The notes under the pieces are model-generated. The model ran no database searches, was not told the origin of the DNA, and was given only the letters and a program-made list of their open reading frames with translations. A DNA stretch of 64,000 nt, from the NCBI GenBank assembly GCA_027622375.1, contig JAQCAB010000001.1, positions 115,317-179,316 of the forward strand, in the 5' to 3' direction. This DNA comes from Bacteroidota bacterium (GTDB lineage Bacteria; Bacteroidota; Ignavibacteria; UBA10030; UBA8401). Positions within the stretch are counted from its first letter, which is position 1, and each line of letters starts with the position of its first letter. The position numbers were made by a program, and so were the translations under genes. Positions 39,567-64,000 of the stretch are shown here, in pieces.

Positions 39567-39578
39567 ACTTTTTAAAAA

Positions 39579-40736
39579 TTACGTTGTTTGTAAATTTGCA
39601 TTTTCAAATTCATGGCCGATATTTTTTGATTCTCTCGGAAATAAATCTGTTTGTGAAGAAATATTTAAAAGTACACCTACCGAAAAACAAGTAAGTAAAA
39701 AACTTGTACCACCATAACTAACAAAAGGCATTGGCAAACCAGTTGTTGGTAAAATGCCAAGTGTAATTAACATGTGAATTATTGCATAAAATGTTAGTGA
39801 GAATGTGATTCCAAATGCTAAATACTTCCCGAATGAATCTGGGGAATATTTTGAAATTCTGATGCCACGATAAAAAATTGTGAGAAATGCAATTATCAAA
39901 AATATTGTACCGATAAATCCATATTCTTCTCCAACAATTGAAAAGATAAAATCATTATAAGATTCTGGTAAAAAAAAGTTACGTTGTTTACTTTCTCCCA
40001 TTCCAATACCAAAAATACTTCCGTTACCAAATCCAATAACACCTTGCGATTGCTGAAAAGATTTAAATGAAGCATTTTCGCTGCCAACTCCAAAAAATGA
40101 TAATATTCTTGCTCTTCTATATGAAGCACTCATCATATAAATAATTATAATTGGCAAAAGTGATAAAAATGTTTTAGCCAAATGCGAAAATTTTGCACCT
40201 GCAATAAAAACCATAGAAATACCAATTGTTGCAATCATAATCCCCATGCTAAAATTTGGTTGTAAAAATATTAATGCAACAACAATTCCAATAACAAGTA
40301 GTGGTGGCAAAAGACCTTTTTTAAAATTTTCGATTATCTCTTGTTTTTTTGTGAGTAGTGAGCTTAAATAAATTATGATTGCAATTTTTGCAATTTCAGA
40401 TGGTTGAAAACGAAATCCTAAAAGAGTAATCCAGCGAACGGCACCCTTTTCGAGATTTCCAAAAAATATTGTTACAACCAATAATAATATTGATGCAATA
40501 ATAAAAACTTCTGCAAATCGTTTATAAATTTTATAATTCAATTTCATCGAAATAAATAAAACAATTAAACCGATCCAAATAAAATTTAAATGTTTGTTTA
40601 AAAGAGCATTTGTAGAACCAAGTTTTTGTGAAGCAAACATGGATGAAGCACTAAATATTACAAGGGTGCCAAAAAATATTAATGCAAAAACTGTTAACAA
40701 AATTAATCTATCGATGTAATTATTTTTGGTTGCCAT
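39579..40736 (-). CDS. ftsW: SEDS-family peptidoglycan glycosyltransferase FtsW
   Basis: It is a 10-TM SEDS protein with PESYNDFIFS and GILPTTGLPMPFVSYGGTS motifs. Confidence 0.9.
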   Translation of the reverse strand: MATKNNYIDRLILLTVFALIFFGTLVIFSASSMFASQKLGSTNALLNKHLNFIWIGLIVLFISMKLNYKIYKRFAEVFIIASILLLVVTIFFGNLEKGAVRWITLLGFRFQPSEIAKIAIIIYLSSLLTKKQEIIENFKKGLLPPLLVIGIVVALIFLQPNFSMGIMIATIGISMVFIAGAKFSHLAKTFLSLLPIIIIYMMSASYRRARILSFFGVGSENASFKSFQQSQGVIGFGNGSIFGIGMGESKQRNFFLPESYNDFIFSIVGEEYGFIGTIFLIIAFLTIFYRGIRISKYSPDSFGKYLAFGITFSLTFYAIIHMLITLGILPTTGLPMPFVSYGGTSFLLTCFSVGVLLNISSQTDLFPRESKNIGHEFENANLQTT

Positions 40737-42139
40737 TATTTTTTATCCATCGAATAAATTAATTTTTTAAAAACTTGACCGCGTTCTTCATAATCATTAA
40801 ACCAATCAAAAGATGCACACGCTGGTGAAAGTAAAATTGTGTTTCCCTTTTCAGAAATTTCAACGGCTTTATCCAAAACTTTATGCATTGATAAAATATT
40901 TGGTTTATCATTACCAATAGTTTCAATTAAAATTGTTTTAACGATTTTAGAAAAATGTTTTTCTATTTTTTCTTTGGAGTCACCAAAAGCAATTATTGAG
41001 CGAACTTTATTTTTTACAATTTCATTTATAGCTGAATAATCATTCCCTTTATCTTTTCCACCTAAGAGAAGAATAATTGGTTCATTAATTGTTTCAAGTG
41101 CCGATCGCAAACTATCAACCGTTGTTGCTTTAGAATCGTTCACAAATTTTACATCATTAATTTTTGCAACAAATTCTTGACGATGTTCAACGCCTTTAAA
41201 ATTCCTCAAAGTTGCTCTTAAAGAAGCAAGATTAACTCCAAGTGACATTGCAACAAGTGTTGATGCCATTGCATTTTTTAGATTATGCTCTCCCTTTATG
41301 CTGATTTCGTGAATGTTGATTACTTCGCTTAATTGACCATTCATTGATACAATTAATTTTTCACCATCAATAAATGCGCCATCAGTTCCCAAAGGTTTTT
41401 TGGATTTTGTGGAAAAGAAAATCTTTTTTGGAGTTGAATTTGAAATAATTTTTTTTGTCCACTCATCTTCATAATTATAAATTAGCAAATCATTTAAAGT
41501 TTGATTTTTTAAAATTCTTTTTTTGGAATTCGCATAAAGCTCCATAGAATTTTTATATCTATCTAAGTGATTTGGTGTAACATTTGTAATTACACTTATT
41601 GATGGATGAAATGTGTGGCAAAAATCAAGTTGAAAGCTACTTACCTCCAGAAGAATAATATCTTTCGGAACCAAATCCATAACAAATGATGAGAATGCCT
41701 TACCAATGTTACCCGCAGTAATGTATTTTTTCTTTGCATCGCTTAACATCCTTTCTATTAAAGTTACTGTTGTAGTTTTGCCAGACGACCCGGTTACTGC
41801 AATAATTTGATTATCGCAAAACCAGCTGGCTATTTCAATTTCGCTAACAACCGGAATATTTCTGGTTATCACTTCCAAAATAAAATTTGAATCTGGTGGA
41901 ACTCCGGGACTTATAACAACTAAGTTTGCATCAAAAGCTAAGCTAGAATGTTCGCCAACTTCAAATTGAATATTTAATTTTTTGAGCTCCGATAAATTTT
42001 TTTCAGTTGATTGGTTTTTATTATTATCAGTAACAAAAACTTTTGCACCTTTTTGCGCAAGTAATTTAGCAACAGCAATTCCGCTACGCGCTATGCCAAC
42101 TACTGTAATTTTTTTACCAATAATATTTTTATCCATCAA
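40736..42139 (-). CDS. murD: UDP-N-acetylmuramoylalanine--D-glutamate ligase
   Basis: It has the Mur ligase P-loop GSSGKTTT and the MurD N-terminal Rossmann segment (VVGIARSGIAVAKLL). Confidence 0.9.
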   Translation of the reverse strand: MMDKNIIGKKITVVGIARSGIAVAKLLAQKGAKVFVTDNNKNQSTEKNLSELKKLNIQFEVGEHSSLAFDANLVVISPGVPPDSNFILEVITRNIPVVSEIEIASWFCDNQIIAVTGSSGKTTTVTLIERMLSDAKKKYITAGNIGKAFSSFVMDLVPKDIILLEVSSFQLDFCHTFHPSISVITNVTPNHLDRYKNSMELYANSKKRILKNQTLNDLLIYNYEDEWTKKIISNSTPKKIFFSTKSKKPLGTDGAFIDGEKLIVSMNGQLSEVINIHEISIKGEHNLKNAMASTLVAMSLGVNLASLRATLRNFKGVEHRQEFVAKINDVKFVNDSKATTVDSLRSALETINEPIILLLGGKDKGNDYSAINEIVKNKVRSIIAFGDSKEKIEKHFSKIVKTILIETIGNDKPNILSMHKVLDKAVEISEKGNTILLSPACASFDWFNDYEERGQVFKKLIYSMDKK

Positions 42140-43251
42140 CGCACTTTAAAAGTTGTTAAACTTATTATCATTAATAGAATTGCAATTATGTAAAACCTCG
42201 TAACAATTTTTGGTTCTGGAATTCCTTTTAATTCAAAATGATGATGAAGTGGCGCCATCAAAAATATTCTTTTTCCTTCGCCATACTTCTTTTTTGTGTA
42301 TTTAAAATAAACTCGCTGGATAATTACAGAAACAGTTTCAATAAAAAATATTCCACCTAAAATTGGCAGAATAAATTCTTTTTTAACCATAATAGTTAAA
42401 GCTCCCAATGCGCCACCGAGCGCTAATGAACCTGTATCTCCCATAAAAACTTGCGCGGGATAAGAATTAAACCATAAAAATCCCATTGCAGCTCCAACAA
42501 GTGCTGCACAAAATATTGCAAGCTCGCCATTACCTCGCAAGAAAATTATATTTAAATAATTACTTAATTCGTAGTTACCTGAGATATAACTAATTACACC
42601 AAGAGTTAATCCAACAATTCCAACCGTCCCTATTGCAAGTCCATCAAGTCCATCAGTTAAATTGACAGCATTTGATGTTGCAATAATTACAAATACAACC
42701 ATCGGTACATAAAAAATTGAAAGATCAAAATTAAAATCTTTTACAAAAGGAACAGTTGTTAATGTAGCAGCATTTATTGAAGTGACTTCAGTTGCATTCA
42801 TCAAAATCACTCCAAATAAAATTCCAATTGTGAATTGCCCAATAATTTTATACCAACCAATTAATCCTTTTGGTTTTTTCTTAATTACTTTTAAATAGTC
42901 GTCCAAAAATCCAACGATGCCCAAACCGATCGTTACAAATAAAATTAATTGCACATAAATATTTTGAAGATTCGACCACAAAATTGTTGGCGTTAATAAC
43001 GCGCCCAAAACAATCAATCCACCCATTGTTGGTGTGCCAGCTTTATTTAGATGAGTTTTTGGAGCTTCAACTTTTGCCGACTCTCCAATTTGAAATTTTT
43101 TAAGAAGTGAAATTATTTTTGGTCCCAACCAAAAACTAATTAACAAAGCTGTAATTGCTGCAGCTGCTGCACGAAAAGTTAAATATCTAACAACTCCAAA
43201 ACCTGGAGGAGAATACAAATTTTCAATCCAAGTAAAAAAGTGATACAGCAT
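42136..43251 (-). CDS. mraY: Phospho-N-acetylmuramoyl-pentapeptide transferase
   Basis: The MraY motifs NAVNLTDGLDGLA and MGDTGSLALGG are present. I take the start at the internal ATG (MLYHFF...), 1 bp after the murF stop. The ORF-track start at 43281 would overlap murF. Confidence 0.9.
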   Translation of the reverse strand: MLYHFFTWIENLYSPPGFGVVRYLTFRAAAAAITALLISFWLGPKIISLLKKFQIGESAKVEAPKTHLNKAGTPTMGGLIVLGALLTPTILWSNLQNIYVQLILFVTIGLGIVGFLDDYLKVIKKKPKGLIGWYKIIGQFTIGILFGVILMNATEVTSINAATLTTVPFVKDFNFDLSIFYVPMVVFVIIATSNAVNLTDGLDGLAIGTVGIVGLTLGVISYISGNYELSNYLNIIFLRGNGELAIFCAALVGAAMGFLWFNSYPAQVFMGDTGSLALGGALGALTIMVKKEFILPILGGIFFIETVSVIIQRVYFKYTKKKYGEGKRIFLMAPLHHHFELKGIPEPKIVTRFYIIAILLMIISLTTFKVR

Positions 43252-43252
43252 T

Positions 43253-44638
43253 CTATCCAACCTCCTGCAAGTGGTCAACAATTTCTTCCATTTTCATTCC
43301 GCGCGATCCTTTAACCAAAACAACATCTCCTCTGTCAACAATATTTGTTAGCATATCTTTTAAATCATTTTTAGAATCAAAGTGATGGTTGTTTTCTAAT
43401 TTTGCACTTTTGCTAATTAATTGTGCCATCAATCCATAAGTAAATAAATGTTTAAACTTCATAGATTTTATTTTTTTACCAATTAACTTATGTTCCGATT
43501 TTGAAGCGCTACCCAATTCCAACATATCTGCCATGACAATTATTTTTTTTCCAGGAGCGTCAATATTTTTTAAAGTTTCGAGCGCGACTAAAACGGAATC
43601 TGGATTTGAATTATAAGTATCATTAATTACAAGTAAACCATGACGATGAATTACTTCCATTCTTTTTGCTGGAGAAGAAAACATTGAAAGCCCAAAAGAA
43701 ATTTTTTCTGGAGGAACTTTAAATAAAATTCCGAACGCTCCTGCAACTAATGCATTTGAAACATTATGCAAACCGGGAACAGTAAGTGATACAGGGATTT
43801 TAATTCTTTTGGATTTTATTATAAATGAAGTTTCTCCTCTTTTATTAATATTAATTTTAGTTGCGTAAAAATCGCTCGTCTTTTTAATTGAATAAAAATA
43901 TTTTTTTCTATTTGATCTTGAGGATTTAACTAAAAACGAATCATCATGATTTACAATTATCATTCCATTTTCTCTTAAATATTTATAGATAGTGGTTTCC
44001 TCTTTTGCAACACCATCTAAATCACCAAAAAATTCAAGATGCTCTTTGCCGATATTTGTAATTATGCCATAATTTGGTTCTGCAATTTTACATAAGTAAC
44101 CAATTTCGCCGAAATGATTTGTCCCCAATTCAAGCACTGCCATCTCAATCCCTTTTCTTAATTTAAATAACATGTGTGGCATGCCAATATTATTATTTAG
44201 ATTTCCCTGCGTTGCTAAAACGTTATATTTAGTTTGCAAAACAGAATTAATCATATCTTTAGTTGTAGTTTTTCCGTTGCTACCTGCAACAACAATTATT
44301 GGAATGTCAAATTTTCGGCGATATAAATTTGCAAGTTCACCAAGAGTATCAATTGTATTTGGAACAATTACAAAAGTAATTGTAGAACTTTTTACATTAA
44401 ATACATTCAATTTGTACCACTCAGTATCTGCGACGATTACAGTTACTTTAGAATTTTTTGCAGTTTCAATAAAAGTATGCCCGTCGTGATGTTCGCCTCG
44501 AATTGCAAAGAAAATATTTCCTTCGTGAACAGTTCTTGAATCTGTAGAAACACCTGAAATTTTTTGCAAACGAAAATATTTTTCGTTAAACAAAATTGAA
44601 TTAGAAAGTGATTTTAAATCTTTTATACTAAGATTCAT
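43253..44638 (-). CDS. murF: UDP-MurNAc-tripeptide--D-alanyl-D-alanine ligase
   Basis: It has the Mur ligase P-loop GSNGKTTTKDM and a MurF-type N-terminus. Confidence 0.9.
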   Translation of the reverse strand: MNLSIKDLKSLSNSILFNEKYFRLQKISGVSTDSRTVHEGNIFFAIRGEHHDGHTFIETAKNSKVTVIVADTEWYKLNVFNVKSSTITFVIVPNTIDTLGELANLYRRKFDIPIIVVAGSNGKTTTKDMINSVLQTKYNVLATQGNLNNNIGMPHMLFKLRKGIEMAVLELGTNHFGEIGYLCKIAEPNYGIITNIGKEHLEFFGDLDGVAKEETTIYKYLRENGMIIVNHDDSFLVKSSRSNRKKYFYSIKKTSDFYATKININKRGETSFIIKSKRIKIPVSLTVPGLHNVSNALVAGAFGILFKVPPEKISFGLSMFSSPAKRMEVIHRHGLLVINDTYNSNPDSVLVALETLKNIDAPGKKIIVMADMLELGSASKSEHKLIGKKIKSMKFKHLFTYGLMAQLISKSAKLENNHHFDSKNDLKDMLTNIVDRGDVVLVKGSRGMKMEEIVDHLQEVG

Positions 44639-46145
44639 ATTTTTTTATAAACTCCTCAATTTCTTCTTGGTCACTCAAATGAATTTTAGAATTTCCAATT
44701 ACTTGATAATCTTCATGCCCTTTACCAGCAACAACTACTATGTCACCATCTACTGCTTGCATGAGAGCTTTTTTAATTGCTGACTTTCTATCGGGTTCAA
44801 TAATTGTTAATTTATTTTTTTTCATTCCGTTTAAAATATCTTCAATAATTTTTTCTGGGTTTTCTGTTCGTGGATTATCTGAAGTTATCACAACTACATC
44901 ACTCAGCTCTTCAGCAATTGAACCCATTATTGGTCTTTTTGTTTTATCGCGATCACCGCCAGCTCCAAAAAGTGTAATTATTTTTTTTTCTTTTTTTACA
45001 AGTGGTCTAACTGTTTCTAAACATTTTTTTAATGCATCTGGTGTGTGCGCATAATCTACAACAGCAATCCAATTTTTTGGAGATTTAATTTGATGCAATC
45101 TGCCGGGAGCTGGTTTTAAATTTTGGAAAGCCGATTGAATGTTATTCCAACTAATCCCCATTGAATAAAGTGTAGAATATGCAGCTAATAAATTTTCTAA
45201 ATTAAATTCTCCTAAAAGTGAAGTTGAAACTGATTTTGAATTTGGACTATGATTATTAATTATTGTTGAAATCCCCTTCGAAGAAAAAATATTTTGATTT
45301 GCCCAAATATCACTTTGTTTTTGTCTGCTGTATTTTATAATCTTAGCTTTTGTATCTTTAATAATATCATCACAATAAATAGAATCAGAGTTTACAATTG
45401 CAATTGAATCTGTTTTTAAATTATCAAACAATATTTTTTTAGATTTTAAATACTCATCCATTGTTACGTGATAATCCAAATGATCTTGAGTTAAGTTTGT
45501 AAAAACAGCGGTGCTAAAATTAATTCCATTAACTCTGTGTTGATGCAAAGCATGAGAGGAAACTTCCATCACAACGTGTGTACATTTATTATTTAGCATT
45601 TGGGAAAAAAGTTCCTGCAAATCAATTGATTCTGGAGTTGTATGTATAGCAGAAAAACTTTTAACACCATCGTAATATTGGATTGTGCCAATTAATCCAA
45701 CTTTAACATTTTCAATATTACTTTGCTCGAGCAATTGTTTTATTAAATATGTTGTTGTTGTTTTTCCGTTTGTACCAGTAACTCCAATTACTTTTAACTT
45801 TTGAGTTGGGTTCTCAAAATAATTATTTGCCATTTGTGCAAGTGTAATTCGACTATTACTTACAACCAGTTTTGCAACTCCCAGGTGCATGCAAAGTGCA
45901 TCTGGCAAACTTGATTCATCCTCAACAACTACAACACGTGCACCTTTTGAAACTGCTTCGCCAATAAATTTATGTCCATCAAAACTCATCCCCTTTATTG
46001 CAACAAACAAATCACTTTTATCTACTTTTTTTGAATTGTATTGTACTTTGCTGATATGAATATCATCTTTAATAATTGTTTGGCCATAGACGGTATTATA
46101 CAGTTTTATGATTTTAACATCCCGTATAAGTTCGCCTAATTTCAT
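44628..46145 (-). CDS. murE: UDP-MurNAc-L-Ala-D-Glu--2,6-diaminopimelate (or L-Lys) ligase
   Basis: GVTGTNGKTTTTYL and the MurE C-terminal motifs are present. It overlaps murF by 11 bp. Confidence 0.9.
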   Translation of the reverse strand: MKLGELIRDVKIIKLYNTVYGQTIIKDDIHISKVQYNSKKVDKSDLFVAIKGMSFDGHKFIGEAVSKGARVVVVEDESSLPDALCMHLGVAKLVVSNSRITLAQMANNYFENPTQKLKVIGVTGTNGKTTTTYLIKQLLEQSNIENVKVGLIGTIQYYDGVKSFSAIHTTPESIDLQELFSQMLNNKCTHVVMEVSSHALHQHRVNGINFSTAVFTNLTQDHLDYHVTMDEYLKSKKILFDNLKTDSIAIVNSDSIYCDDIIKDTKAKIIKYSRQKQSDIWANQNIFSSKGISTIINNHSPNSKSVSTSLLGEFNLENLLAAYSTLYSMGISWNNIQSAFQNLKPAPGRLHQIKSPKNWIAVVDYAHTPDALKKCLETVRPLVKKEKKIITLFGAGGDRDKTKRPIMGSIAEELSDVVVITSDNPRTENPEKIIEDILNGMKKNKLTIIEPDRKSAIKKALMQAVDGDIVVVAGKGHEDYQVIGNSKIHLSDQEEIEEFIKKYES

Positions 46146-46147
46146 AA

Positions 46148-48187
46148 TTAATTTTTAAGAGATAAGTTTTTAAAATTATTTGAATTGAATACTGCAACAT
46201 TGTTTGTACATCCAAGAGTAATTGTACTACCTTTTGTAACTTCACTACCTGCAATTGGATTTTGATTTACAACAATTCCTGTGCCTGAAAATTTTGCAGT
46301 TAAATTATTAGACTTTAAAATTGAAATTGCTTTTCGCAAAGTTAAACCACATACATTTGGAAGAAATACATTGTTTGTTTCTGTTGACGGATTTATAATT
46401 TTATTTTCATATATATTTTTTGTGGAAATATTATTTTTAGATTTTTGTTCAAATTTATTTTCTGCAATTTGAAATTTACTTTGATTAAAAAATCCTTTGT
46501 TGCGATGCAATTGCTCGGCGATACCTCTAAAAATAATTGCACTTGTTGTTCCTCCGTAATATTCTCCTTTAGGATTTTCTAGAAGTACAACGCAAACAAT
46601 TTCAGGATCATCTGCGGGATAAAATCCTGCGAATAAAGCATTGTAAAATCCTTTTTTATATTCACCATCAACAAACTTTCGTGCTGTACCAGTTTTTCCA
46701 GCAATTGGTAAATCAGTTAATTTGGTTCCACTCCCGGTTCCTTCATCAACAACTTTTTTTAACATTTCTTTTAAAGTTTCAGCAACATCAGCAGAAATTA
46801 CTCTTCTAATTAATTTTGTTTCATTCGATTCAATTATTTCACCTTCTTCATTTTTAACATTTTTAATTATGAATGGTTTTAAAAGTAATCCACCATTCGC
46901 AATTACTGAATATGCCATTGCAAGTTGTAATGGAGTTGAATTAAGTTCATATCCAAATGACATATTATTTAAGGTTGTAATTGACCACGAAAATGGTTTT
47001 TTAAGTTCGCCTGATGCTTCGTTTGGAATTTCAACATTTGTGGGGAAACCAAATCCAAAACTTCGTGCGTGAGTATAAAGTTGTTCAGCTCCAATTACAT
47101 TGCTAATTTTTGCCATAACAATGTTGCTTGAATTTGTCAACGCATCAGTTACAGTTACATCGCCTTTCAAGGGATGTGAGTCTTCAATTATTCTAGATTT
47201 TTTATTATTAAGTTGAACGACATATTTTCCATTTTCTGCAAAAAACTTTTGTTCGGGAGTTATAGAATTATTTGTTAGTCCTGCTGAAACTGTAATCACT
47301 TTAAATAAAGATCCTGGCTCGTATAATTCTGTTACTGATCTATTTTTGAGAGCTTCTTGCTCAAATACTCTAGTTACACTTGGATCAAAAGTTGGATAAT
47401 TAGCATTTGCTAAAATTTCTCCAGTTTTTGGATTTACCATTATTACACAACCTGCATCAGCCTGCGTACGATCGATTCCCTTTTTTAATTCTTCTTCCGC
47501 TATTGTTTGATATTCGAGATCAAGTGTAAGTTGTAATGAATTTCCATTTTTTGGTTCTTGTCTTGGATAATCAATTGAAACATAAGTTTTACCAAGCCCA
47601 TCACGCTGAAGTATAACAAATCCTGAATCACCACTTAAAATTTTATTGTATTGATATTCAATTCCACTTTTACCAATATTTTCAAAATTTGTAATCCCAA
47701 TTGTTTGGACAGCAGTACCGCCATTAAAAAATAAACGCCTAGGTGTATTTACTGGAATTATTCCTGGTAATTTTTTTTGGATAATTTTTTCAGCAACTAC
47801 TGGGGGAATATTTTTTTCGAGCCAGATAAACTTCTTTTTTGATGATAATTTATTTTTATAATGATTTATTGGTTTATTAAATACTTGCGAAAATATTCTT
47901 GATGTTGAAGTTAAATTGTTTTTTGCAATTGATGGATCGGCTGCAAGTGATATTAAAACTGAATTTGAAACAAGTAAATTATTTTTTCTATCAAAAATTA
48001 ATCCACGGGCTGGTGGCAATGGAACATAATTTTGATATTGAAGTCGTGCGAGTTCTGTATATTTCGGAGAATCAATTATTTGTATTTGAACTAGCCGAAT
48101 TATTGTCAACAAAAATAAAAGTGAAATAGAAACAACTATTAATACAACTCTTATTCCACGGTTTTCGATTGAGGAATTTTTTCTCAT
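46148..48187 (-). CDS. ftsI: Peptidoglycan D,D-transpeptidase FtsI (class B PBP) with a C-terminal PASTA domain
   Basis: It has an N-terminal TM helix, a dimerisation domain and the transpeptidase motifs SLFK (STFK-type), SNS and KTGT. The last ~65 aa (NVCGLTLRKAISILKSNNLTAKFSGTGIVVNQNPIAGSEVTKGSTITL) match the PASTA fold. Confidence 0.85.
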   Translation of the reverse strand: MRKNSSIENRGIRVVLIVVSISLLFLLTIIRLVQIQIIDSPKYTELARLQYQNYVPLPPARGLIFDRKNNLLVSNSVLISLAADPSIAKNNLTSTSRIFSQVFNKPINHYKNKLSSKKKFIWLEKNIPPVVAEKIIQKKLPGIIPVNTPRRLFFNGGTAVQTIGITNFENIGKSGIEYQYNKILSGDSGFVILQRDGLGKTYVSIDYPRQEPKNGNSLQLTLDLEYQTIAEEELKKGIDRTQADAGCVIMVNPKTGEILANANYPTFDPSVTRVFEQEALKNRSVTELYEPGSLFKVITVSAGLTNNSITPEQKFFAENGKYVVQLNNKKSRIIEDSHPLKGDVTVTDALTNSSNIVMAKISNVIGAEQLYTHARSFGFGFPTNVEIPNEASGELKKPFSWSITTLNNMSFGYELNSTPLQLAMAYSVIANGGLLLKPFIIKNVKNEEGEIIESNETKLIRRVISADVAETLKEMLKKVVDEGTGSGTKLTDLPIAGKTGTARKFVDGEYKKGFYNALFAGFYPADDPEIVCVVLLENPKGEYYGGTTSAIIFRGIAEQLHRNKGFFNQSKFQIAENKFEQKSKNNISTKNIYENKIINPSTETNNVFLPNVCGLTLRKAISILKSNNLTAKFSGTGIVVNQNPIAGSEVTKGSTITLGCTNNVAVFNSNNFKNLSLKN

Positions 48188-48190
48188 TTT

Positions 48191-48607
48191 TTATTTTTTT
48201 AATTCCTTAAGTTTATTTCGATCGATTGAAAACCAATTTGGCGATGAATTTGGATTTGACATTTGCAATAGATTTGAAGCAACAACCGAAATTTTTTCGA
48301 TGCTAGATTTTCGGTTTATTTCCGCCTGTAAAAGCTGATTAATATTTCGATTTTTTTTATGAGTTGTCTTTAACTCGCCAACTTCTTTTGCCAAACTTTC
48401 AACCTTAATAACATTACCTATATAAAGTAATGCAGTGACTGCAAAAACAAACATCCAACTCACAATATTAAATGTAGAATGTTTGCGTTTATAAACCGGT
48501 CGATTTTTTGATTCGGAATTTTCATCACTAATTTTTTCAACTTTCGAATTATGTTCGCTATAAACATATCGTCGATCATCCAAAATATTTTGATTACTAT
48601 TTGCCAT
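48191..48607 (-). CDS. ftsL: FtsL-like cell division protein
   Basis: It has a single TM helix (IVSWMFVFAVTALLYI) followed by a coiled-coil segment. Its position is between rsmH and ftsI. Confidence 0.5.
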   Translation of the reverse strand: MANSNQNILDDRRYVYSEHNSKVEKISDENSESKNRPVYKRKHSTFNIVSWMFVFAVTALLYIGNVIKVESLAKEVGELKTTHKKNRNINQLLQAEINRKSSIEKISVVASNLLQMSNPNSSPNWFSIDRNKLKELKK

Positions 48608-49599
48608 TAATTTTTTTCTGCAATTCTTAGTTTTGCACTACGCGAACGTTTGTTATTTTTTACTTCTTCTTCCGATGGAATAATTGGTTTTTTAGTTAAT
48701 AAATTAAAAATTGGTTCAATTATTTTATTTGGAATTAATTTATGAGATGATCTTTCATAATTTTTAGAGTTGTTCACAAAAAATTGTTTTACAATTCTAT
48801 CTTCCAATGAGTGATAGGAAATTATTGCAATTCTTGATTTTGGAAGTAAAATATTTTTTGAGAATTCAAGTAAGTTAATTAACTCATCTAATTCTTTATT
48901 TACTTCAATTCTAATTGCTTGAAAAATTCTGGAAATACATTTGATTAAATGTTTGCCTTTGTAACATTTTTCAATAACACTAATTAAATCATTTACTTTT
49001 TCAATTTTAGAAATACTTCTTGTTTCAAATATTTTTCTTGCAATTCTTTTTGAAAATGGTTCTTCGCCATATTTAAAAAATATCTCAACAAGTTTTTCTT
49101 GGCTGTAATTATTAACTATATCTTTAGCGTTTATTGGTTGAGATTTATCCATTCTCATATCTAATTCTGATTGATGTAAATATGAAAATCCCCTTTCACT
49201 TGACTCAATTTGAAAAGACGAAACACCCAAATCTGCAACAACTCCATTTACTTTCGAAATATTATTTTCATTTAAAACATTAACAATATTTTGAAATTTA
49301 CTTTTCACAATAATTAATTGCCCTTTATTAATCCAATAAACAAATTCTGTTTTAACAAATTTAATTGCATCTTCATCTCGATCGATTGCAATAACTTTTC
49401 CATTTTGTGAAAGTTGTTTAAGTATCTCGTTTGTATGACCACCACCACCGAGAGTGCAATCAACATAAATTCCGTTTTTATCTGTGATGAGATTTGAAAT
49501 AGTTTCTCTAAGCAAAACTGGTTTATGATAAATTGTAGTTTTATTTTCCACATTAAGAAAATCAATAGAATTATTTTTTAAAAACTTGCGCAGCAACAT
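48607..49599 (-). CDS. rsmH: 16S rRNA (cytosine1402-N4)-methyltransferase
   Basis: The motifs YHKPVLL and IYVDCTLGGGGH are present. I chose the internal Met start, which overlaps mraZ by 29 bp. The longest ORF would overlap by 92 bp. Confidence 0.85.
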   Translation of the reverse strand: MLLRKFLKNNSIDFLNVENKTTIYHKPVLLRETISNLITDKNGIYVDCTLGGGGHTNEILKQLSQNGKVIAIDRDEDAIKFVKTEFVYWINKGQLIIVKSKFQNIVNVLNENNISKVNGVVADLGVSSFQIESSERGFSYLHQSELDMRMDKSQPINAKDIVNNYSQEKLVEIFFKYGEEPFSKRIARKIFETRSISKIEKVNDLISVIEKCYKGKHLIKCISRIFQAIRIEVNKELDELINLLEFSKNILLPKSRIAIISYHSLEDRIVKQFFVNNSKNYERSSHKLIPNKIIEPIFNLLTKKPIIPSEEEVKNNKRSRSAKLRIAEKN

Positions 49600-50014
49600 C
49601 TTCGTAACTTTGTTGCTGTTTTTGTTTATATGTATCGAATAACTTGGGATTCCAAACTTCAATTCTATCTAACACCCCAATTATTTTTACATCTGTTGTA
49701 ATATGTGCGAACTGTAGCAACTCTTTTGGAATTACAATTCTAGATTGTTTATCAAGAGTAGATTCTGTTGCCCATTCAAGTAAAGTCCGGGCAATAAATC
49801 TATGTTGCGGATCTGCTGAAATTAAATTTCGGATTGATTCTTCAACTTTTATCCATTCATCATGTGGGTACAAAAATAAACATTCTTCGTAACCACGTGT
49901 GATTATAAACATTTCGTTTGCATTTGGCGAAATGTTTTTCTTCATGCGCGCAGGGATATTAATTCTCCCTTTTGCGTCTACAGCATATGTATACGATCCA
50001 ATAAACGATGACAT
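49571..50014 (-). CDS. mraZ: Transcriptional regulator MraZ
   Basis: It is 147 aa with a duplicated SpoVT/AbrB-like domain (DAKGRINIPARMKK ... DKQSRIVIPKEL). It is the first gene of the dcw cluster. Confidence 0.85.
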   Translation of the reverse strand: MSSFIGSYTYAVDAKGRINIPARMKKNISPNANEMFIITRGYEECLFLYPHDEWIKVEESIRNLISADPQHRFIARTLLEWATESTLDKQSRIVIPKELLQFAHITTDVKIIGVLDRIEVWNPKLFDTYKQKQQQSYEDVAAQVFKK

Positions 50015-57631: not shown

Positions 57632-60600
57632 TTATTTTAAGAACAACATTTTTTTAGTTTGCACAAATCGTTTTGATTTATCAATTGCTTCGGCTTCAAT
57701 TCTGTAAAAATACATTCCGCTAGATTGGTTTGCATTCCAACTAATTGTATGATTCCCCGCTGGAAGTACATCATTAACAAGTTCTGTAATTTTTTCGCCA
57801 AGTAAATTATAAATTTCGATTTTAACTTTACTTTCAATTGGGAGTGAGTATTTAATATTTGTTTTTGGATTAAATGGATTTGGATAATTTTGTTCCAAAC
57901 TAAAATTCTTTGGCAATACAGGTTTTGCTGAATAATTTACAGATAGGTTTCCATTTTGATTAATATTTTTTGAAACAGAATAGATTTCGAAAGCGCCATT
58001 TAAATTACCTTCAAAATTATTATTTAGAATTGAGATATAAATATTTCCAAGCTCGGTTGAAGCTTCTGGCGATAAATCTTTATTTCCAAGATTTGCAAAT
58101 GCAGTTGTTGTAAGTCCATATTTAGAGTGTGAATTAAACATTGCAACAATTGATTCACCAAAATATTTTTTAAGATTTGTATTCAGCACAAACGAATCAA
58201 CTTTTACAGCATTTGTATTAAAGTTTAAAGTCAAACTCATCGCATCAAAACTTTTTACTCCACTTGCGAAAATAGGGATTGCAATTGTTCTTCCATCATT
58301 TAAAGATTTTGTTTCACCAGCAAAAATACTTTTTTCTGAAATATTGGCATTATTTTCTTTTGCAATAGTTGAGTTTACGGTTCCCCCTTTTCCATTTATA
58401 AATGCCCAGTTCCAAATTCTAACAAATAATGTTAAATCTTCAAGATCAATTAAGCCATCATTATCAATCGAAATAACCGGGAAAGTTCCCCGATATGGAG
58501 AAATATCGCCAACATTTTTATTTCCAGTTTTCCAAGCGTTACTAAAAATTGCAAGATCTTCCGTTAAAATTCTTCCATCATTTGTATAGTCAGTTAAAAT
58601 ACCAGTTGTAAATTGTTTTGCCTTTGCAACTTTTGTGCTGTCAAGATTTCCGAGAGAATCTCTATACCATAATGTGAAATAATGTTTTGTCATTGCTTTC
58701 AATTTTGGAATCCACATCGAGTCAATATCACTTGTTGGTTTAGTAATTGGGAAAACTCTTGTTGGTGTATTACTATTATATATTGATGTTTCAGTTACAT
58801 ATAATTGATATGATGTTGGAGAACTCATATCTGTTGATTTTGTCCAACTTACTGTAACACTGCCTGCAATATTTTGAGTGTTATTTACAACTGATTTTAT
58901 ACTATCAATCATTGGAGGAGTATTATCAACTGTAAATTTATTTGTTGTAAGTGGTTGACTATTTACTGCTAAACCATATGCAGTCAAACGGAATTTGGTT
59001 GTTTGCGATTCAATAAACTCACCATCACTTTTTGTGCGCCACAAAACTGAATCATTAAAATTTGAATTTGAAACTTTTGTAGCTCTTCCACCAAGTTGTG
59101 CTACTGAGAACCATGAGACACCATCATTTTTACTAAACTCTCCGACAAATGTAATTGTATCATCATTTGCAGCGTTAACCAAAAATGGAATGTAAACAGA
59201 ATCTTTTACAATTTTTTGAGGTGTTGTTACTGAAAGTAGTCTAACCGGTTTCGACGGAGTTGCTCTTTTAAGAATTTCATTTTTATCAAAATTATCTGCT
59301 CTATCTCGAGCTCGCAAAGCAAGAAAATATTTTTTATAATTTTGGAATCCAGTTATTGTTTTTGTGTGCGTAGTTGGAGAATCATCAATTATACTATCTC
59401 TTGGTGAGTTGTAATCTATTAAAGTAGAATCCGTTTGAACATAATAAATATAATATCTGAGTGGCGAATTTTTATCTGTTCCTTTAAGCCATGTAATTGT
59501 AATTGCATTACCTGTAGTTTCAGCAAATGCCGAAGTAATTCCACTAAATGCTGGTGGGTTGTTGTCTAAAGAAAATACACTTGATGCAGTTGGATTACCC
59601 GTTCCACCAATACCTATTAATGTAACTCTTAATTTTACTGAATCATTTTCAATAAACGAAAAATCTTTTTTAGAAAGCCACCCCATTAAAGTTGGAATAC
59701 TTGATATAGCAAATTTTTCTTTTGTAACTAAAATATTTGTTGTTGCAAACCAAGTTGAACCATTATTAAGTGAGTATTCCAAAACTAATGATGCAGTATC
59801 ACCCAAATCTCCATTCGGATAATATAAAATTCTTAAACTGTCTGATGCAAAATTAAATTGGTTTTTAGCTACAACAACAGAATCAACTTGTGGTTTTCTA
59901 GGAACAACTCTAAACTCCCATGCAGTTGACCACAAACTTGTGTCTGTCAAATTTCGCGCACGCATCTTCCAGTAATAAGTTAAATTTGTGGTCAAAGAAT
60001 CGTAATAATGTATTTTTAAACTTGAATCAATATCTGCAACATCACGCACACCTGTTGTAAATCCAGAAGTTTGAGAAATTTGTAAATCATATCTTGTTGC
60101 AACTTTTGCAGTATCTTTCCATTGTAAAGTATCACGAACTTTTACCCAAAGTTTTTTATCAGTCGGGCTTAGATGAATTGGTGCACCAATTAAAGTTCTA
60201 AAATTCCAAACAAAAGACCAAAAACTTATATTATTTCTATTATCACGCGATCTAACTCGCCAGAAATATTTTTTATAATTTTTAAAATTTGTAATTGCTT
60301 TTACTGTATCGCCACCTGTAATATCACCACTAAAAAAAGGAGTTAAAGTAGTATCAATTGTAGTTGCTGTGTGTGGCTGCTCATAAATTTCCATTCTGTA
60401 ATCAATTGCACCTAAAACTTTTCTCCATTTTAAAGTATTCGAAATTGCAATTCTTACTGATGAACTTTCGGGATAAACAAGAACTGGTTGTTCATTTACA
60501 TCTTCAATTAAAACTGTAACTGCTCTTTCAAAAAATTTTGCAGGTGTGCCAGAATCTGTGGTTCGTATTCTGATTGTATATTGATTTTTGGCTTCGTAAT

Positions 60601-63600
60601 TATAACTTTCTTTTGCTTTAAGTTTGTCATTTAAAATTTGGAAAGAAGCATTATCATCGGAACCTAATCCTGTTACAAGTGTGTATGTAAAAGATTGATT
60701 TGCATCTTCATCTGTTGTTGATAAAGTTCCGATTACTATATCATCTGGTTCATTTTCTGCAATTGATGAATCACTTATTGTTATCCAAGTTGGTGTGTCA
60801 TTTACATTATCAATTGTAATCGGGATTGCTCTATCAAAAGTTTTTCCCGGTGTGCCGTTATCTGTTGTGCGAATTCGAACAGTGTAACTACTTTTTACTT
60901 CAAAATTAAAAACTTCGTTTGTTTTAAGTTGATCACCTGCAATCGTAAATTTTGCATTATCATCAGCACCTGTCCCTGCAACAAAAGTGTAAGTATGTGT
61001 TTGCCCAACATCTGCATCGGTTGTTGATAATATTCCAACTTTCGTTCCAACAACTTCATTTTCTGCAACTGTTGAGTCATCTATCGCAATCCAAGTTGGA
61101 GCATCATTATCATTTTCAATTACAACTGTTATTGCTCTTTCAAAAAATTTTGCTGGTGTTCCAGAATCTGTTGTACGAACACGAATTGTATAATTTGATT
61201 TTACTTCGTAATCAAAAACAGCATTCGATTTTAACTGATCACCAGTTATTGTGAATGAAGAATTATTATCCGAGCCTGTGCCTGTTACAAAAGTATATGT
61301 GTAACTTTGACCAGCATCTTCATCTGTTGAACTCAATGTTCCGATTGTTGTGTTTGTCGGTAAATTTTCAAGTATTGTAGAATCATTAATTGCAATATTT
61401 GTTGGTGTGTCATTTGCATCCTTAATTGTAATTGGGATAATTCTTTGGAATGATAAAGCTCCCTGGTCTAAAGTTTGTACCCGAATTGTATAACTTGATT
61501 TTACTTCGTAATTGTAAATTGCATTTGATTTAAGCTTATCTCCAACAATTTGGAAAGATGCGTTATCGTTTGACCCAGCACCGGAAACTAATGAATAAGT
61601 AAAATTAACATCTCCATCAGGATCAGTTGAGCTGAGAGTTCCAATATCAGTTCCTGTTGCTAAATTTTCAAAAATTGTTGAGTCGCTGATTGCAACATAA
61701 GTGGGCGCATCATTTACAGAATTAATTGTAACATTAAAAGTTTTTTCAACTACATCGTCTCCACTATTTGCTGTTCCACCATCATCAGTAACTCTTACTG
61801 TAAGAACTATGGGGCTAATTCCTGAAGTATTTTTATTTGCAACTGGAGAAAATGTTAAAGTGCCAGTTGCATTCGGACTTGTGTACGAAGTGATAGTTGG
61901 AGTTGGTATTATTGTGGTTGTATTTGATGTAGCTGAAACAATTAAAAATTGCCCAACTTCATCTGAACCGCCACCAACACCAATGCCAGCTAAATTTACA
62001 GTTTGTGTTACAGCATCTTCATCAATTGTTATATCAACTGGTTTTGTTAAAGTTGGCTCATCATTTACTGCAGTAACAGTAATTGTAAAAGTTATTGGCG
62101 CATCAGAAGTTGAATTGTCACCACCATTTGCAGTCCCACCATTATCATCTAAATATGCAGTTATGGTTGCAGAGCCATTTTTATTTAAATCTGGTCTAAA
62201 AGTTAAATCGCCAGTTGCCGAAATTGCAGGTTGCTCAACAAACAATGCTGTATTGGTATTTGTGGAAATTACAAAATTTAGTGTTTGTAAATTTTCATTT
62301 GTTATACTTGAACTCGTTGGTCCCTTCTTTATATTTGTTGCCCAACTCGAAATTGTTTGAGTTGTAACATCTTCAAGAACTGTTTGGTTTGCACCTTTTG
62401 TAAAACTTGGTGAATCGTTTACTGGAGTTATTGTTACTTGAAATGTTTTTGAAATTGAACTATTTGTTGAACCACCATCACTAACTGTTACTGTAATTGT
62501 AATTGTCCCATTTTGATCTGCTTGCGGAGTTAAAGTTAAACTTCCTGTATTATTTGCACTTGTGTATATTACTGTTGGGTTTGGAATAACTGCTGCATCA
62601 CTTGACGTTGCAGTAACGGATAAAGTTTGTGTTTCGTTTGCTGCACCAGATCCAATTCCACTTAAATTTACAGTTATATTTCCACCTGCATCTTCCAAAA
62701 CCGCAGTCGGGTTTGAAATATCTGCAAGTGTCGGCTGATCATTTACAGAAGTTACAGTTACATTTATTGTAATAACTTTTGTGTCATCTCCACTATTTGC
62801 TGTTCCACCATTATCAGTGAGTGTAACAGTTAAAACAACTGGTGTGCCAGAAGTAAATTGATCTGCAGCCGGAGTAAAATTAATTGTTCCTGTCGGATTT
62901 GCACTTGCATAAGAAATTGTTGGTGTTGGAATTATATTTGTGTTGCTCGAAGTTATTGATAGAGCCAGGGTTTGACTATTTTCATCTGTTCCTCCTCCTG
63001 CACCAATTCCAGATAAAGAGATGGTTTGTGCCGATGCATCTTCATCAACAGAAATATCAGATACGGAATTTATTATTGGTTCATCATTTACGCCAGTAAC
63101 TGTTATTGTAAAACTTTTTGGATCGTCACTTGTATTATCTACACCACTATTTGCAGTTCCACCATCATCTTGTAAGTAAACCGTTACTGTTGCAACACCA
63201 ACTTTGTTTGTTGCAGTAGTATAAGTTAAAGTCCCACTTGCATCAATTACAGGTCCTGCAGAAAAAAGTGCAGTGTTAGTATTATTTTGAATTACAAAAG
63301 ATAGAATTTGAGATGCTTCATTAGTTCCTTTATTTAAATTTGTTGCCCAACTTACACTTTGCCCACCAGCATCTTCTAAGATAGTTTGGGCACCGCCAGC
63401 AGTATAACTTGGTATATCATTAACATTTGTAACTGTAACTGTAAATGTTTTTGTGATTGCATCATCGCCACTATTTGCAGTTCCACCATTATCTGTAACT
63501 GTAACAGAAATTGTAACAGTACCATATTGATTTGCATTTGGTGTATAAGCAAGTGAGCCAGTTGTTGCCGCGCTATTATATGTTACTGTTGGATCAGGTA

Positions 63601-64000
63601 TTATAGTAGTATTGCTTGATGTTGCAGTAACTGTTAATGCTTGATTTGTTTCCCATGCTAAATTAGATCCATTACTTTTTATTCCATTTAAGTTTACAGT
63701 TTGTTGTGCTGCATCTTCAAGAATTGTTAAGGTACTTAAATTATCAATAGTCGGTTCTTGGTTTACTTGTGCTATTGTAATTGTAAAAGTTTGATTTGCG
63801 CTTGAGTTATTTCCACTGTTTGCAGTTCCACCATCATCTTGAATTGAAAGTGTTACTGTTGCAGTACCAACTTGATTAGTTGCCGGAGTAAAAGCTAATA
63901 CTCCACTCGCGTTGACTGCAGGTTGAACTGAAAATAATGTGTTTGCATTATTTGTAACTGTAAAAGTTAAAGCTTGTGAATCTTCATCCGAACCACCCCC
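57632..64000 (-). CDS. Giant T9SS-secreted surface adhesin (>2100 aa; the N-terminus lies outside the window)
   Basis: The reading frame is continuous on the minus strand from 64000 to the stop at 57632. I checked by hand that it continues past the ORF-track TTG at 62698. From the N- toward the C-terminus it has the following parts. It starts with at least six ~115-aa VNDxPT-type repeats (SGIGxG...IPxPTIxY...NGxxxIxVxVxDxGGTxNxGD...VNDxPT). Four ~103-aa cadherin-like repeats follow (DNDAPT / ANDTPT linkers, TDxDxG). FN3-like W-containing domains come next. A dockerin-like double Ca-loop follows (DYTNDGRILTED ... DNDGLIDLED), then a cohesin-like beta domain. The tail is a T9SS C-terminal domain (QNYPNPFNPKTNIKYSL...MLFLK). 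Confidence 0.8.
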   Translation of the reverse strand, partial: GGGSDEDSQALTFTVTNNANTLFSVQPAVNASGVLAFTPATNQVGTATVTLSIQDDGGTANSGNNSSANQTFTITIAQVNQEPTIDNLSTLTILEDAAQQTVNLNGIKSNGSNLAWETNQALTVTATSSNTTIIPDPTVTYNSAATTGSLAYTPNANQYGTVTISVTVTDNGGTANSGDDAITKTFTVTVTNVNDIPSYTAGGAQTILEDAGGQSVSWATNLNKGTNEASQILSFVIQNNTNTALFSAGPVIDASGTLTYTTATNKVGVATVTVYLQDDGGTANSGVDNTSDDPKSFTITVTGVNDEPIINSVSDISVDEDASAQTISLSGIGAGGGTDENSQTLALSITSSNTNIIPTPTISYASANPTGTINFTPAADQFTSGTPVVLTVTLTDNGGTANSGDDTKVITINVTVTSVNDQPTLADISNPTAVLEDAGGNITVNLSGIGSGAANETQTLSVTATSSDAAVIPNPTVIYTSANNTGSLTLTPQADQNGTITITVTVSDGGSTNSSISKTFQVTITPVNDSPSFTKGANQTVLEDVTTQTISSWATNIKKGPTSSSITNENLQTLNFVISTNTNTALFVEQPAISATGDLTFRPDLNKNGSATITAYLDDNGGTANGGDNSTSDAPITFTITVTAVNDEPTLTKPVDITIDEDAVTQTVNLAGIGVGGGSDEVGQFLIVSATSNTTTIIPTPTITSYTSPNATGTLTFSPVANKNTSGISPIVLTVRVTDDGGTANSGDDVVEKTFNVTINSVNDAPTYVAISDSTIFENLATGTDIGTLSSTDPDGDVNFTYSLVSGAGSNDNASFQIVGDKLKSNAIYNYEVKSSYTIRVQTLDQGALSFQRIIPITIKDANDTPTNIAINDSTILENLPTNTTIGTLSSTDEDAGQSYTYTFVTGTGSDNNSSFTITGDQLKSNAVFDYEVKSNYTIRVRTTDSGTPAKFFERAITVVIENDNDAPTWIAIDDSTVAENEVVGTKVGILSTTDADVGQTHTYTFVAGTGADDNAKFTIAGDQLKTNEVFNFEVKSSYTVRIRTTDNGTPGKTFDRAIPITIDNVNDTPTWITISDSSIAENEPDDIVIGTLSTTDEDANQSFTYTLVTGLGSDDNASFQILNDKLKAKESYNYEAKNQYTIRIRTTDSGTPAKFFERAVTVLIEDVNEQPVLVYPESSSVRIAISNTLKWRKVLGAIDYRMEIYEQPHTATTIDTTLTPFFSGDITGGDTVKAITNFKNYKKYFWRVRSRDNRNNISFWSFVWNFRTLIGAPIHLSPTDKKLWVKVRDTLQWKDTAKVATRYDLQISQTSGFTTGVRDVADIDSSLKIHYYDSLTTNLTYYWKMRARNLTDTSLWSTAWEFRVVPRKPQVDSVVVAKNQFNFASDSLRILYYPNGDLGDTASLVLEYSLNNGSTWFATTNILVTKEKFAISSIPTLMGWLSKKDFSFIENDSVKLRVTLIGIGGTGNPTASSVFSLDNNPPAFSGITSAFAETTGNAITITWLKGTDKNSPLRYYIYYVQTDSTLIDYNSPRDSIIDDSPTTHTKTITGFQNYKKYFLALRARDRADNFDKNEILKRATPSKPVRLLSVTTPQKIVKDSVYIPFLVNAANDDTITFVGEFSKNDGVSWFSVAQLGGRATKVSNSNFNDSVLWRTKSDGEFIESQTTKFRLTAYGLAVNSQPLTTNKFTVDNTPPMIDSIKSVVNNTQNIAGSVTVSWTKSTDMSSPTSYQLYVTETSIYNSNTPTRVFPITKPTSDIDSMWIPKLKAMTKHYFTLWYRDSLGNLDSTKVAKAKQFTTGILTDYTNDGRILTEDLAIFSNAWKTGNKNVGDISPYRGTFPVISIDNDGLIDLEDLTLFVRIWNWAFINGKGGTVNSTIAKENNANISEKSIFAGETKSLNDGRTIAIPIFASGVKSFDAMSLTLNFNTNAVKVDSFVLNTNLKKYFGESIVAMFNSHSKYGLTTTAFANLGNKDLSPEASTELGNIYISILNNNFEGNLNGAFEIYSVSKNINQNGNLSVNYSAKPVLPKNFSLEQNYPNPFNPKTNIKYSLPIESKVKIEIYNLLGEKITELVNDVLPAGNHTISWNANQSSGMYFYRIEAEAIDKSKRFVQTKKMLFLK
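60460..61705 (-). repeat. Four tandem ~309-bp cadherin-like domain repeats inside the adhesin gene
   Basis: Four successive protein blocks share at least 50% identity (e.g. TNIAINDSTILENLPTNTTIGTLSSTDEDAGQSYTYTFVTGTGSDNNSSFTITGDQLKSNAVFDYEVKSNYTIRVRTTDSGTPAKFFERAITVVIENDNDAP against the next three copies). Confidence 0.7.
61702..64000 (-). repeat. At least six tandem ~345-bp VNDxPT-type (cadherin/Ig-like) repeats inside the adhesin gene, continuing beyond the window
   Basis: The recurring block is ...SGIG(S/A)G..(E/D)xxQTLxxxxTSSxxxxIPxPTIxYxSxNxTGxLxFxPxxxxxGxxxIxxTVxDxGGTANxGDxxxxxxFxxTVxxVNDxPT. Antisense shadow ORFs in the track reflect this periodicity. Confidence 0.65.

Follow-up and report, generated by a model that had tools for sequence, protein, structure and literature searches.

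The question raised by this locus is what a giant secreted protein does with a dockerin-like and a cohesin-like module set side by side in front of its secretion tail. The window, which is the whole stretch of 64,000 nucleotides analyzed here, comes from a member of the Ignavibacteria within the Bacteroidota (assembly GCA_027622375.1, contig JAQCAB010000001.1, positions 115,317 to 179,316). It ends inside the gene for this protein, of which 2122 codons and the stop codon are visible on the minus strand (57632..64000), the N-terminal part lying past the window edge. The original prediction, made from the letters of the sequence, described a type IX secretion system (T9SS) adhesin whose cohesin-dockerin pair suggested self-assembling or cellulosome-like surface complexes. 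The analysis presented here indicates that the giant gene product is an adhesin-like surface fibre and not an enzyme scaffold. The best reading of its two modules, to which we give an even chance, is that of a cohesin-dockerin tether anchoring T9SS surface fibres.

The modules lie in a C-terminal region of 245 residues, which opens with a dockerin-like module of about 70 residues (58397..58600, minus strand; amino acids 1801-1868). This module was recognized from family profiles and a structure model, and comprises two EF-hand-type loops, DYTNDGRILTED (amino acids 1804-1815) and SIDNDGLIDLED (amino acids 1844-1855), within window positions 58436-58591. Each loop is followed by a helix, and the two segments are joined by a conserved D-I-[GS]-P...G..P linker. 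A low-complexity linker modeled with low confidence (58331..58396, minus strand; amino acids 1869-1890) leads to a cohesin-fold beta-sandwich of about 140-160 residues (57920..58330, minus strand; amino acids 1891-2027). The last 84 residues of the protein form a T9SS type A C-terminal sorting domain (CTD; 57635..57886, minus strand; amino acids 2039-2122). As had been proposed, this is a genuine sorting tail, since it scores above the curated cut-offs of both PF18962 (34 bits against 27, over amino acids 2039-2112) and TIGR04183 (37.5 bits against 23). Because the type A sorting domain closes a rod of cadherin-type repeats, the protein is predicted to be a type IX-secreted fibrillar surface protein. 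Domain scans detected no enzyme domain anywhere in it.

As a single sequence, the 245-residue region returned little. A Pfam search gave sub-threshold matches to Dockerin_1 and EF-hand and a spurious one to KdpA, phmmer against the PDB gave just an EF-hand kinase (E 0.085), and a word-indexed homologue search with the region alone found nothing. Word-indexed searches using alignments returned 3 and 6 proteins, a profile of 6 sequences matched no cohesin or dockerin in the PDB, and an AlphaFold model from the single sequence was unusable, with a predicted local distance difference test (pLDDT) score of 34. An exhaustive HMMER scan of the region against 1.84 billion cluster representatives yielded 188 proteins at E ≤ 1e-3, and the matches were used to build alignments of 21 (A3) and 44 (A4) sequences. 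The cohesin/dockerin signal in the PDB emerged only with these two alignments. The A4 profile had 25 PDB matches at E ≤ 10, all of them cohesins or dockerins, with the dockerins at positions 6-69 and the cohesins at about 85-211 (best matches 3l8q, 1.1e-3; 4uyp, 2.6e-3; 2y3n_B, 7e-3). Among the 44 relatives, matches at E ≤ 0.01 were obtained with Pfam Cohesin in 10 (best 5.9e-7), with Dockerin_1 in 6, and with NCBIfam dockerin_GC in 36 (best 3.3e-7). No other profile fits the dockerin-like module as well as dockerin_GC, the alignment spanning nearly the whole profile (positions 10-64 of 67).

The AlphaFold2 model based on A4 reached a pLDDT of 87.6 and a predicted template modeling (pTM) score of 0.85. 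It places the loops at cassette residues 12-23 and 52-63 and the helices at 21-33 and 61-76 (pLDDT 90-97), giving the two loop-plus-helix segments of a dockerin, with a linker hairpin and a C-terminal domain of nine strands. The linker between the two modules shows poor conservation and differing lengths among family members, and is also the weakest part of the model (pLDDT below 50 at residues 87-91, averaging 52-65 over residues 81-100). In a Foldseek search against the PDB, the top 49 matches were all cohesins (E 1e-6 to 1e-4). Cohesins were the best structural matches by two methods, and the domain is a nine-stranded jelly-roll beta-sandwich that most resembles solved cohesins. Since sequence profiles, structure prediction and fold comparison agree, the dockerin and cohesin assignments are supported at the family level, with the window copy being a divergent member that falls under the curated thresholds. 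The two-loop dockerin-like segment and the cohesin-like beta domain of the original prediction were therefore both borne out at that level, and the A4 profile search of the PDB brought up no unrelated beta-sandwich families.

Conservation within the dockerin-like module was computed across 100 relatives. In loop 1, the ligand positions 1/3/5/9/12 are kept at 74-99%, with Asp at positions 1 (88%), 5 (82%) and 12 (99%), Asp, Asn or Thr at position 3, and Asp or Asn at position 9 (74%), where the window protein has Leu. Loop 2 has Asp at position 5 (100%), Asp or Asn at position 9 (96%), and Asp at position 12 (100%). The prolines of the linker between the two segments (D-I-G-P...G..P) are invariant. 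Aromatic positions on the two helices hardly vary either (F27, W31 at 97%, F67, W71 at 95%, W73 at 94%), at an overall identity of 20-25%. The span from D12 to W73 is 60-62 residues in 94% of the sequences.

The same arrangement recurs on more than a hundred proteins of uncultured bacteria. A sorting-domain start of the form [NQ]xPNPF was found downstream of the dockerin-like module in 110 of the 152 listed proteins, 200-255 residues past the start of the dockerin in about 100 of them (mostly 227-250 residues), and most of the remaining listed proteins have T9SS-like tails or are fragments. The 245-residue cassette of the window protein, in which the dockerin-like module is followed by the cohesin and then the CTD, shares this layout with about 100 relatives. 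The carriers range from 293 to 3902 residues (median 1238), and their cargo regions are unrelated, including cadherin-like repeats, FN3/LamG, BNR/sortilin, FG-GAP/TIG, right-handed beta-helix, VWA and FGE-sulfatase domains. As judged from these sequences, dockerin-cohesin-CTD is a fixed cassette carried by at least 100 diverse T9SS cargo proteins. Two relatives, P0086 and P0138, have the dockerin followed by the CTD without a cohesin. The public names found for relatives are 'hypothetical protein', 'fibronectin type 3 domain-containing', 'LamG-like' or 'T9SS type A sorting domain-containing', and none of them cites a cohesin or dockerin.

Two cassette loci have further genes worth recording. 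Locus L016 contains two cassette cargo genes 1.4 kb apart, one for P0050 (L016:2-4063, 1353 amino acids) and one for a 1234-residue NosD/beta-helix protein with Cohesin and Por_Secre_tail matches (L016:5502-8063), and a TPR/TMEM260-like gene lies between the two. A small cassette gene in L005 is adjoined by a gene for a 713-residue protein (L005:1076-3217, plus strand) which by eye looks like the DUF262-type nucleases, with a DNA-binding region at its C-terminus.

Cassette genes have conserved neighbors. In the orthologous locus L002 and the same-species L009, the giant gene is preceded by genes for a PEGA + DUF5683 protein of 312-316 residues and for a 284-residue protein. The latter has a signal peptide with a lipobox-type Cys and an NPxDP motif, as well as an Ig-like domain and, at its C-terminus, a beta domain. 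This small protein is 33% identical (E 2e-40) to a 282-residue protein of L008, which occupies the same position upstream of a 3902-residue cassette protein and scores 36.5 bits with Pfam Cohesin, above the cut-off of 24.1. Homologues also adjoin cassette genes in L012 (weak Pfam Cohesin match), L013 and L014 (hhalign probability 99.9%, E 1.6e-33; weak Pfam Y_Y_Y), and in the PDB a profile of five small proteins matched cohesins exclusively (best E 4.6e-5). A cohesin protein of about 265-305 residues lies beside the cargo in six independent loci (L002/L009, L008, L012, L013, L014 and L017), with a signal peptide bearing an invariant lipobox-type Cys where the N-terminus is seen, an Ig domain of Y_Y_Y-like type and a domain of the cohesin kind. 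The PEGA protein, often with a caspase or CsgG-like domain, precedes the small cohesin gene in each locus, and all of these PEGA proteins combine a signal peptide with a hydrophobic segment at the C-terminus. Pfam detected DUF5683 in all PEGA proteins of L002, L009, L008, L012 and L014, but not in that of L013. The gene pairs were located at L002:4266-6079, L009:1857-3658, L008:3176-6035, L012:1-3049, L013:1120-3987, L014:1431-4011 and L017:5699-8265. Likewise, the genes adjoining that of the dockerin-only cargo P0086 encode a caspase-PEGA protein and a 265-residue protein homologous to the small cohesin proteins (probability 98%, E 1.3e-13).

Other features of these loci were noted as well. 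The small cohesin gene and the start of the cargo gene often share a few bases. In L012, a PemK toxin gene with a small upstream reading frame, likely a toxin-antitoxin pair, has been inserted so as to separate the cohesin lipoprotein gene from that of the giant cargo (L012:3141-3694, minus strand). A block comprising STAS, MotA/ExbB, two ExbD, TonB_C, PBP-like and large TPR proteins is conserved downstream of the giant genes at L008:18125-23709 and L010:10920-15553; because of this shared block, L008 and L010 are regarded as orthologous loci, L010 having no small cohesin gene. Two candidates for additional small cohesin proteins were rejected, namely an N-terminal fusion to P0006 and the PKD protein encoded upstream of P0015.

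Taken together with the module assignments, this gene linkage leads to the following proposal. Once the protein has been exported and its sorting domain removed, the cassette would keep the fibre on the cell surface by non-covalent contacts between cohesin and dockerin. The dockerin would plug into the cohesin of the small lipoprotein whose gene lies directly upstream in the orthologous locus and next to many other cassette genes. Until then, the fibre's own cohesin would hold its own dockerin in cis, or it might offer a socket to the dockerin of a neighboring cargo, in which case different cargoes with the same cassette could be chained or clustered. Since dockerin-only cargoes adjoin cohesin-lipoprotein genes, the dockerin probably has a partner in trans. 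The evidence for such action consists of P0086 and P0138, which are without a cohesin of their own, the P0086 locus, which keeps its PEGA and cohesin-lipoprotein genes, and L016 with its two cassette cargoes. We infer that the cohesin-dockerin pair could self-assemble. The proposal may also be widened to an undescribed, widespread anchoring system of three components, in which a PEGA/DUF5683 protein of the membrane, in many cases bearing a caspase domain, and an outer-membrane cohesin lipoprotein would serve interchangeable giant cargoes, each with a dockerin plug and a cohesin socket, that are docked to the lipoprotein and daisy-chained. This wider version is tentative, and we consider it rather doubtful.

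Several observations weigh against the tether. The window sequence itself stays under the cut-offs for Pfam Dockerin_1, which matches just loop 1 (16.1 bits, cut-off 22.9), and for NCBIfam dockerin_GC (19.5-22.4 bits against 29), and it has no Pfam Cohesin (PF00963) match even at E ≤ 10. Gly6 of loop 1 is not conserved, being Ala in the orthologue, and positions 1 and 3 of loop 2 are not conserved in the family (Ser and Asp in the window protein); because of these substitutions, calcium binding by the module may be atypical. The small cohesin gene is absent from two informative loci, L010, where the PEGA gene is kept, and L015, where CarboxypepD_reg and PKD proteins are found instead. For the window organism, we infer the lipoprotein gene from the orthologues (about 75% identity), as the corresponding region lies past position 64000. 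Binding between cohesin and dockerin is a prediction, and the fibre is most plausibly a putative adhesin, a function read from its domain types. Finally, the pTM of 0.85 for the two-domain construct suggests packing in cis of the dockerin against the cohesin of the same chain, which favors a closed, non-assembling module.

In that alternative, the dockerin would be permanently bound to the adjacent cohesin, and the two would form a rigid pedestal separating the fibre from the sorting domain near the membrane, without any intermolecular assembly. The cohesin alone makes up about 60% of the 245 residues over which the pTM was obtained, so that the score itself suggests a defined mutual orientation of the two modules. 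The fixed order and spacing, seen both in the D12-W73 span and in the narrow range of cassette lengths, agree with such a module, and the retention of W31, W71 and W73 at so low an overall identity suggests a conserved partner surface. However, dockerin + CTD proteins without a cohesin in cis do occur, and the separate cohesin lipoprotein conserved beside the cargo in six loci would be superfluous for a module acting only in cis. We therefore regard the permanently closed pedestal as unlikely. It is more improbable still that the likeness is one of fold only, the cassette being a calcium-binding spacer and an Ig-like 'pre-CTD' domain that aid T9SS recognition or folding without any cohesin-dockerin interaction. 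The sub-threshold scores of the window sequence would fit this explanation, as would the individually weak PDB sequence matches (best E about 1e-3) and a second loop that in most relatives is without canonical ligands at positions 1 and 3. It does not account for the presence of both partner folds in fixed order in about 100 proteins, for 25 of 25 PDB matches being cohesins or dockerins that all align to the appropriate half of the profile, or for a further cohesin gene that is genetically linked. Because the fixed co-occurrence, the PDB matches and the linked gene would otherwise be hard to explain, a functional cohesin-dockerin relationship is favored.

The cellulosome-like complex of the original prediction, in which the cohesin would recruit dockerin-bearing hydrolases to a polysaccharide-degrading surface complex, has a precedent in cohesin-dockerin proteins with T9SS-type CTDs that were so interpreted in Cloacimonadota metagenome-assembled genomes (MAGs) (PMC8542988), and some cassette relatives carry beta-helix/NosD-like or FGE-sulfatase domains that are possibly enzymatic. 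Yet no glycoside hydrolase, lyase, peptidase or carbohydrate-binding module (CBM) domain was found in the giant protein, and no CAZyme or CBM domain in the window neighbors examined, which are housekeeping genes. Each protein has a single cohesin, and no multi-cohesin scaffoldin occurs in any locus examined. The partner proteins that such a complex would call for were likewise missing nearby, there being no other dockerin-like pair of EF loops within the 64-kb window. An enzyme scaffold of this kind is accordingly very improbable.

Apart from the cassette, the visible protein consists mainly of cadherin-type repeats. The array comprises one partial and six full bacterial cadherin-like repeats of 108-118 residues in subtypes A and B (61712..64000, minus strand), defined by family matches and boundary motifs and each closing in VNDxP, followed by four classical cadherin repeats of 100-102 residues (60494..61711, minus strand; Pfam Cadherin PF00028). 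The VNDxP motifs stand at amino acids 79, 193, 304, 419, 527, 645, 762, 862, 964, 1066 and 1168, and [DN]xNDxPT is present at every repeat boundary, as in cadherin repeat proteins. The long repeats match NCBIfam tandem-95 at 85.4 bits, under its cut-off of 90, and Pfam Cadherin_4, Big_9 and Cadherin_5 at 37.4, 27.8 and 23.6 bits, respectively. The classical repeats match PF00028 in four stretches (89.8 bits, cut-off 28.8, E 1.5e-25). Mutual identity is 44-59% among the subtype A repeats (long repeats 1, 3, 4 and 6), 56% between those of subtype B (2 and 5), and 53-66% among the classical repeats, which are 17-29% identical to the long ones. The prediction of at least ten cadherin/Ig-like repeats thus holds with ten full repeats, but they fall into three subtypes (A, B and classical cadherin) instead of the two proposed. 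At least eight full long repeats and four classical ones are counted when the window protein is extended by the overlapping contig L001, compared with about 11 long and one classical in the orthologue of L002, a Bacteroidota MAG (2293 amino acids), and about 11 long and four classical in the orthologue P0004 (2604 amino acids). The number of repeat copies therefore does shift in the course of evolution.

Between the repeats and the cassette, two FN3/Ig-like domains were tentatively placed at amino acids 1170-1366 (59903..60493, minus strand) on the basis of weak Pfam similarity (Ig_Rha78A_N, E 0.02). These are followed by two copies of a unit made of a beta-sandwich of unknown family and an FN3-like domain (58601..59902, minus strand; amino acids 1367-1800). 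Within this part, amino acids 1483-1592 score 23.7 bits with Pfam fn3, just under the threshold of 25 (E 5.9e-05), and the other pieces of amino acids 1367-1800 have no significant Pfam match. The FN3-like domains that had been proposed thus approach the family threshold at amino acids 1483-1592 only, the scores of the other segments being weak.

The tandem repetition expected at the nucleotide level was seen as periodicities of 306 nt and 324-354 nt. Copies are 60-70% identical (68-69% for the 306-nt period of the classical repeats), the longest exact direct repeat measures 25 nt, and Tandem Repeats Finder reported no long-period array in the region, which rules out near-identical nucleotide repeats. 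For these reasons, the array offers little substrate for homologous recombination or assembly collapse, and the claim that the locus is prone to both is weak, although a short-read contig stops inside the array and the orthologues carry four classical repeats against one. That the array or the whole gene could be an assembly artefact deserves next to no credence. Contig L001 does end within the array, and the window also ends within the gene, but this independent contig gives an identical protein over the whole overlap, full-length orthologues of the same architecture exist in two other assemblies, and the diverged repeats make a collapse unlikely.

Contig L001 (L001:1-7092) is a Logan contig from SRR2027830. 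Its protein is identical to the window protein across the whole 2122-residue overlap and continues for another 241 residues, until the contig stops inside the gene, in the repeat array, 720 nt past the window edge. Short-read assemblies seem to break within the giant gene despite the diverged repeats. The reading frame agrees with the predicted protein of more than 2100 residues leaving the window, as the minus strand is free of stops for 2122 codons from the TAA at 57632-57634 up to position 64000. In the list of open reading frames (ORFs), the gene appears as a TTG-started ORF of 1688 amino acids (57632-62698), the frame being really open to the window edge. The ORF lister omits ORFs that run off the source, and a reading of the list alone therefore under-calls the giant gene by more than 430 codons. 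The full-length protein is estimated at about 2,600 amino acids. Its own N-terminus lies past position 64000; both full-length orthologues, L002 and P0004, begin with a signal-peptide-like MKKL(L/F)LNI...AQ.

The genomic setting is ordinary. The window has a G+C content of 30.5%, and the genes flanking the giant gene, which encode YceI, ribosomal protein S20, a TPR protein, a GT2 glycosyltransferase, LptE, a sigma-54 activator, a SPOR protein, a MiaB-like enzyme and the mraZ-ftsI-mur cluster, are ordinary chromosomal housekeeping genes. The last of these is the dcw cell-division and cell-wall cluster (36571-50014, minus strand; mraZ, rsmH, a DivIC-like gene, PBP/FtsI with a PASTA domain and Mur ligases), whose position a few kb away indicates an ordinary chromosomal context for the giant gene. 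A second T9SS cargo is encoded at 20747-22330 on the plus strand. This protein of 527 residues combines DUF1501 (sulfatase-like) with Por_Secre_tail (PF18962, 39.3 bits), has neither dockerin nor cohesin, and is an indirect pointer to T9SS machinery in the organism.

Among known systems, the modules are structurally at home in the same cohesin-dockerin world as the type I and II pairs of clostridial cellulosomes (PDB 1ohz, 2ccl, 4uyp, 3l8q, 6kgc). They differ in their Gram-negative T9SS context, in having one dockerin and one cohesin adjacent in a single polypeptide, in the absence of enzymes and CBMs, and in an anchor that is a T9SS sorting domain or a lipoprotein instead of SLH or sortase. 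The sequences differ too, with loop 2 degenerate in most relatives, Trp-rich helices (F..AW, F..MWNW) and a window copy under the Pfam cut-offs. Outside cellulose degradation, Peer et al. reportedly described non-cellulosomal cohesin and dockerin modules in 2009, sometimes with both in one protein. Non-cellulosomal structures were also among the sequence and fold matches obtained here, namely 2xdh from Archaeoglobus fulgidus and 2ozn, 2jnk and 2w1n from the Clostridium perfringens proteins NagJ/NagH. Those cases are isolated proteins or toxin complexes, whereas here a fixed cassette is carried by about 100 or more T9SS cargoes and is accompanied by a linked cohesin lipoprotein gene. In the 'GC-type dockerin domain-anchored protein' family of NCBIfam (NF041540), the dockerin is the C-terminal anchor, while here the cohesin and the T9SS tail come after it. 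The signal peptide, the long calcium-binding repeat array and the type A CTD are common to T9SS fibrillar adhesins and tandem-95 cadherin-like proteins of Bacteroidota; to our knowledge, a dockerin-cohesin cassette has not been described for these.

The two closest published parallels come from other lineages. For Candidatus Stygibacter (Cloacimonadota), a cellulosome-like system was proposed with dockerins on hydrolases and a scaffoldin of 3,755 amino acids with tandem cohesins and CBMs (PMC8542988). It resembles the present case in that cohesin and dockerin proteins with a T9SS-type CTD occur in an uncultured, MAG-only lineage (PMC8542988), and differs from it in that here a single cargo carries both modules, enzymes are not evident, and an extra cohesin resides on a small lipoprotein. 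Cag_2037 and Cag_2038 of Chlorobium chlorochromatii are giant BIg-repeat proteins with a proposed cohesin-dockerin tether and export by the type I secretion system (bioRxiv 10.64898/2026.03.19.712371), and thus likewise giant Ig-repeat surface proteins of an FCB-group bacterium whose tether pair is encoded by neighboring genes. In that pair, however, an N-terminal cohesin on one protein faces a C-terminal dockerin on the other, without the dockerin-cohesin-CTD cassette, the T9SS tail or the lipoprotein cohesin. The literature searched, whose coverage was incomplete so that its silence is absence of evidence only, contained neither the cassette nor its link to a cohesin lipoprotein and PEGA/DUF5683, and that on cohesins and dockerins in Ignavibacteria, Marinimicrobia and Latescibacteria, or on DUF5683/PEGA with cohesin, had nothing on the cassette.

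The giant gene therefore belongs with known kinds, being a T9SS cadherin-like fibre with cohesin-dockerin modules of the non-cellulosomal sort, and what looks new is the cassette together with its conserved gene partners, whose modules public annotation misses. In Porphyromonas, T9SS cargo is covalently attached to anionic lipopolysaccharide (LPS), and this is the main model of cargo retention. The cassette and the linked lipoprotein offer a testable alternative for uncultured T9SS lineages, in which very different giant proteins would be anchored in the manner of plug and socket. If true, the three-component system would be a non-covalent alternative to the LPS attachment of Porphyromonas cargo, and anchoring by the cassette would extend cohesin-dockerin biology well beyond cellulosomes.

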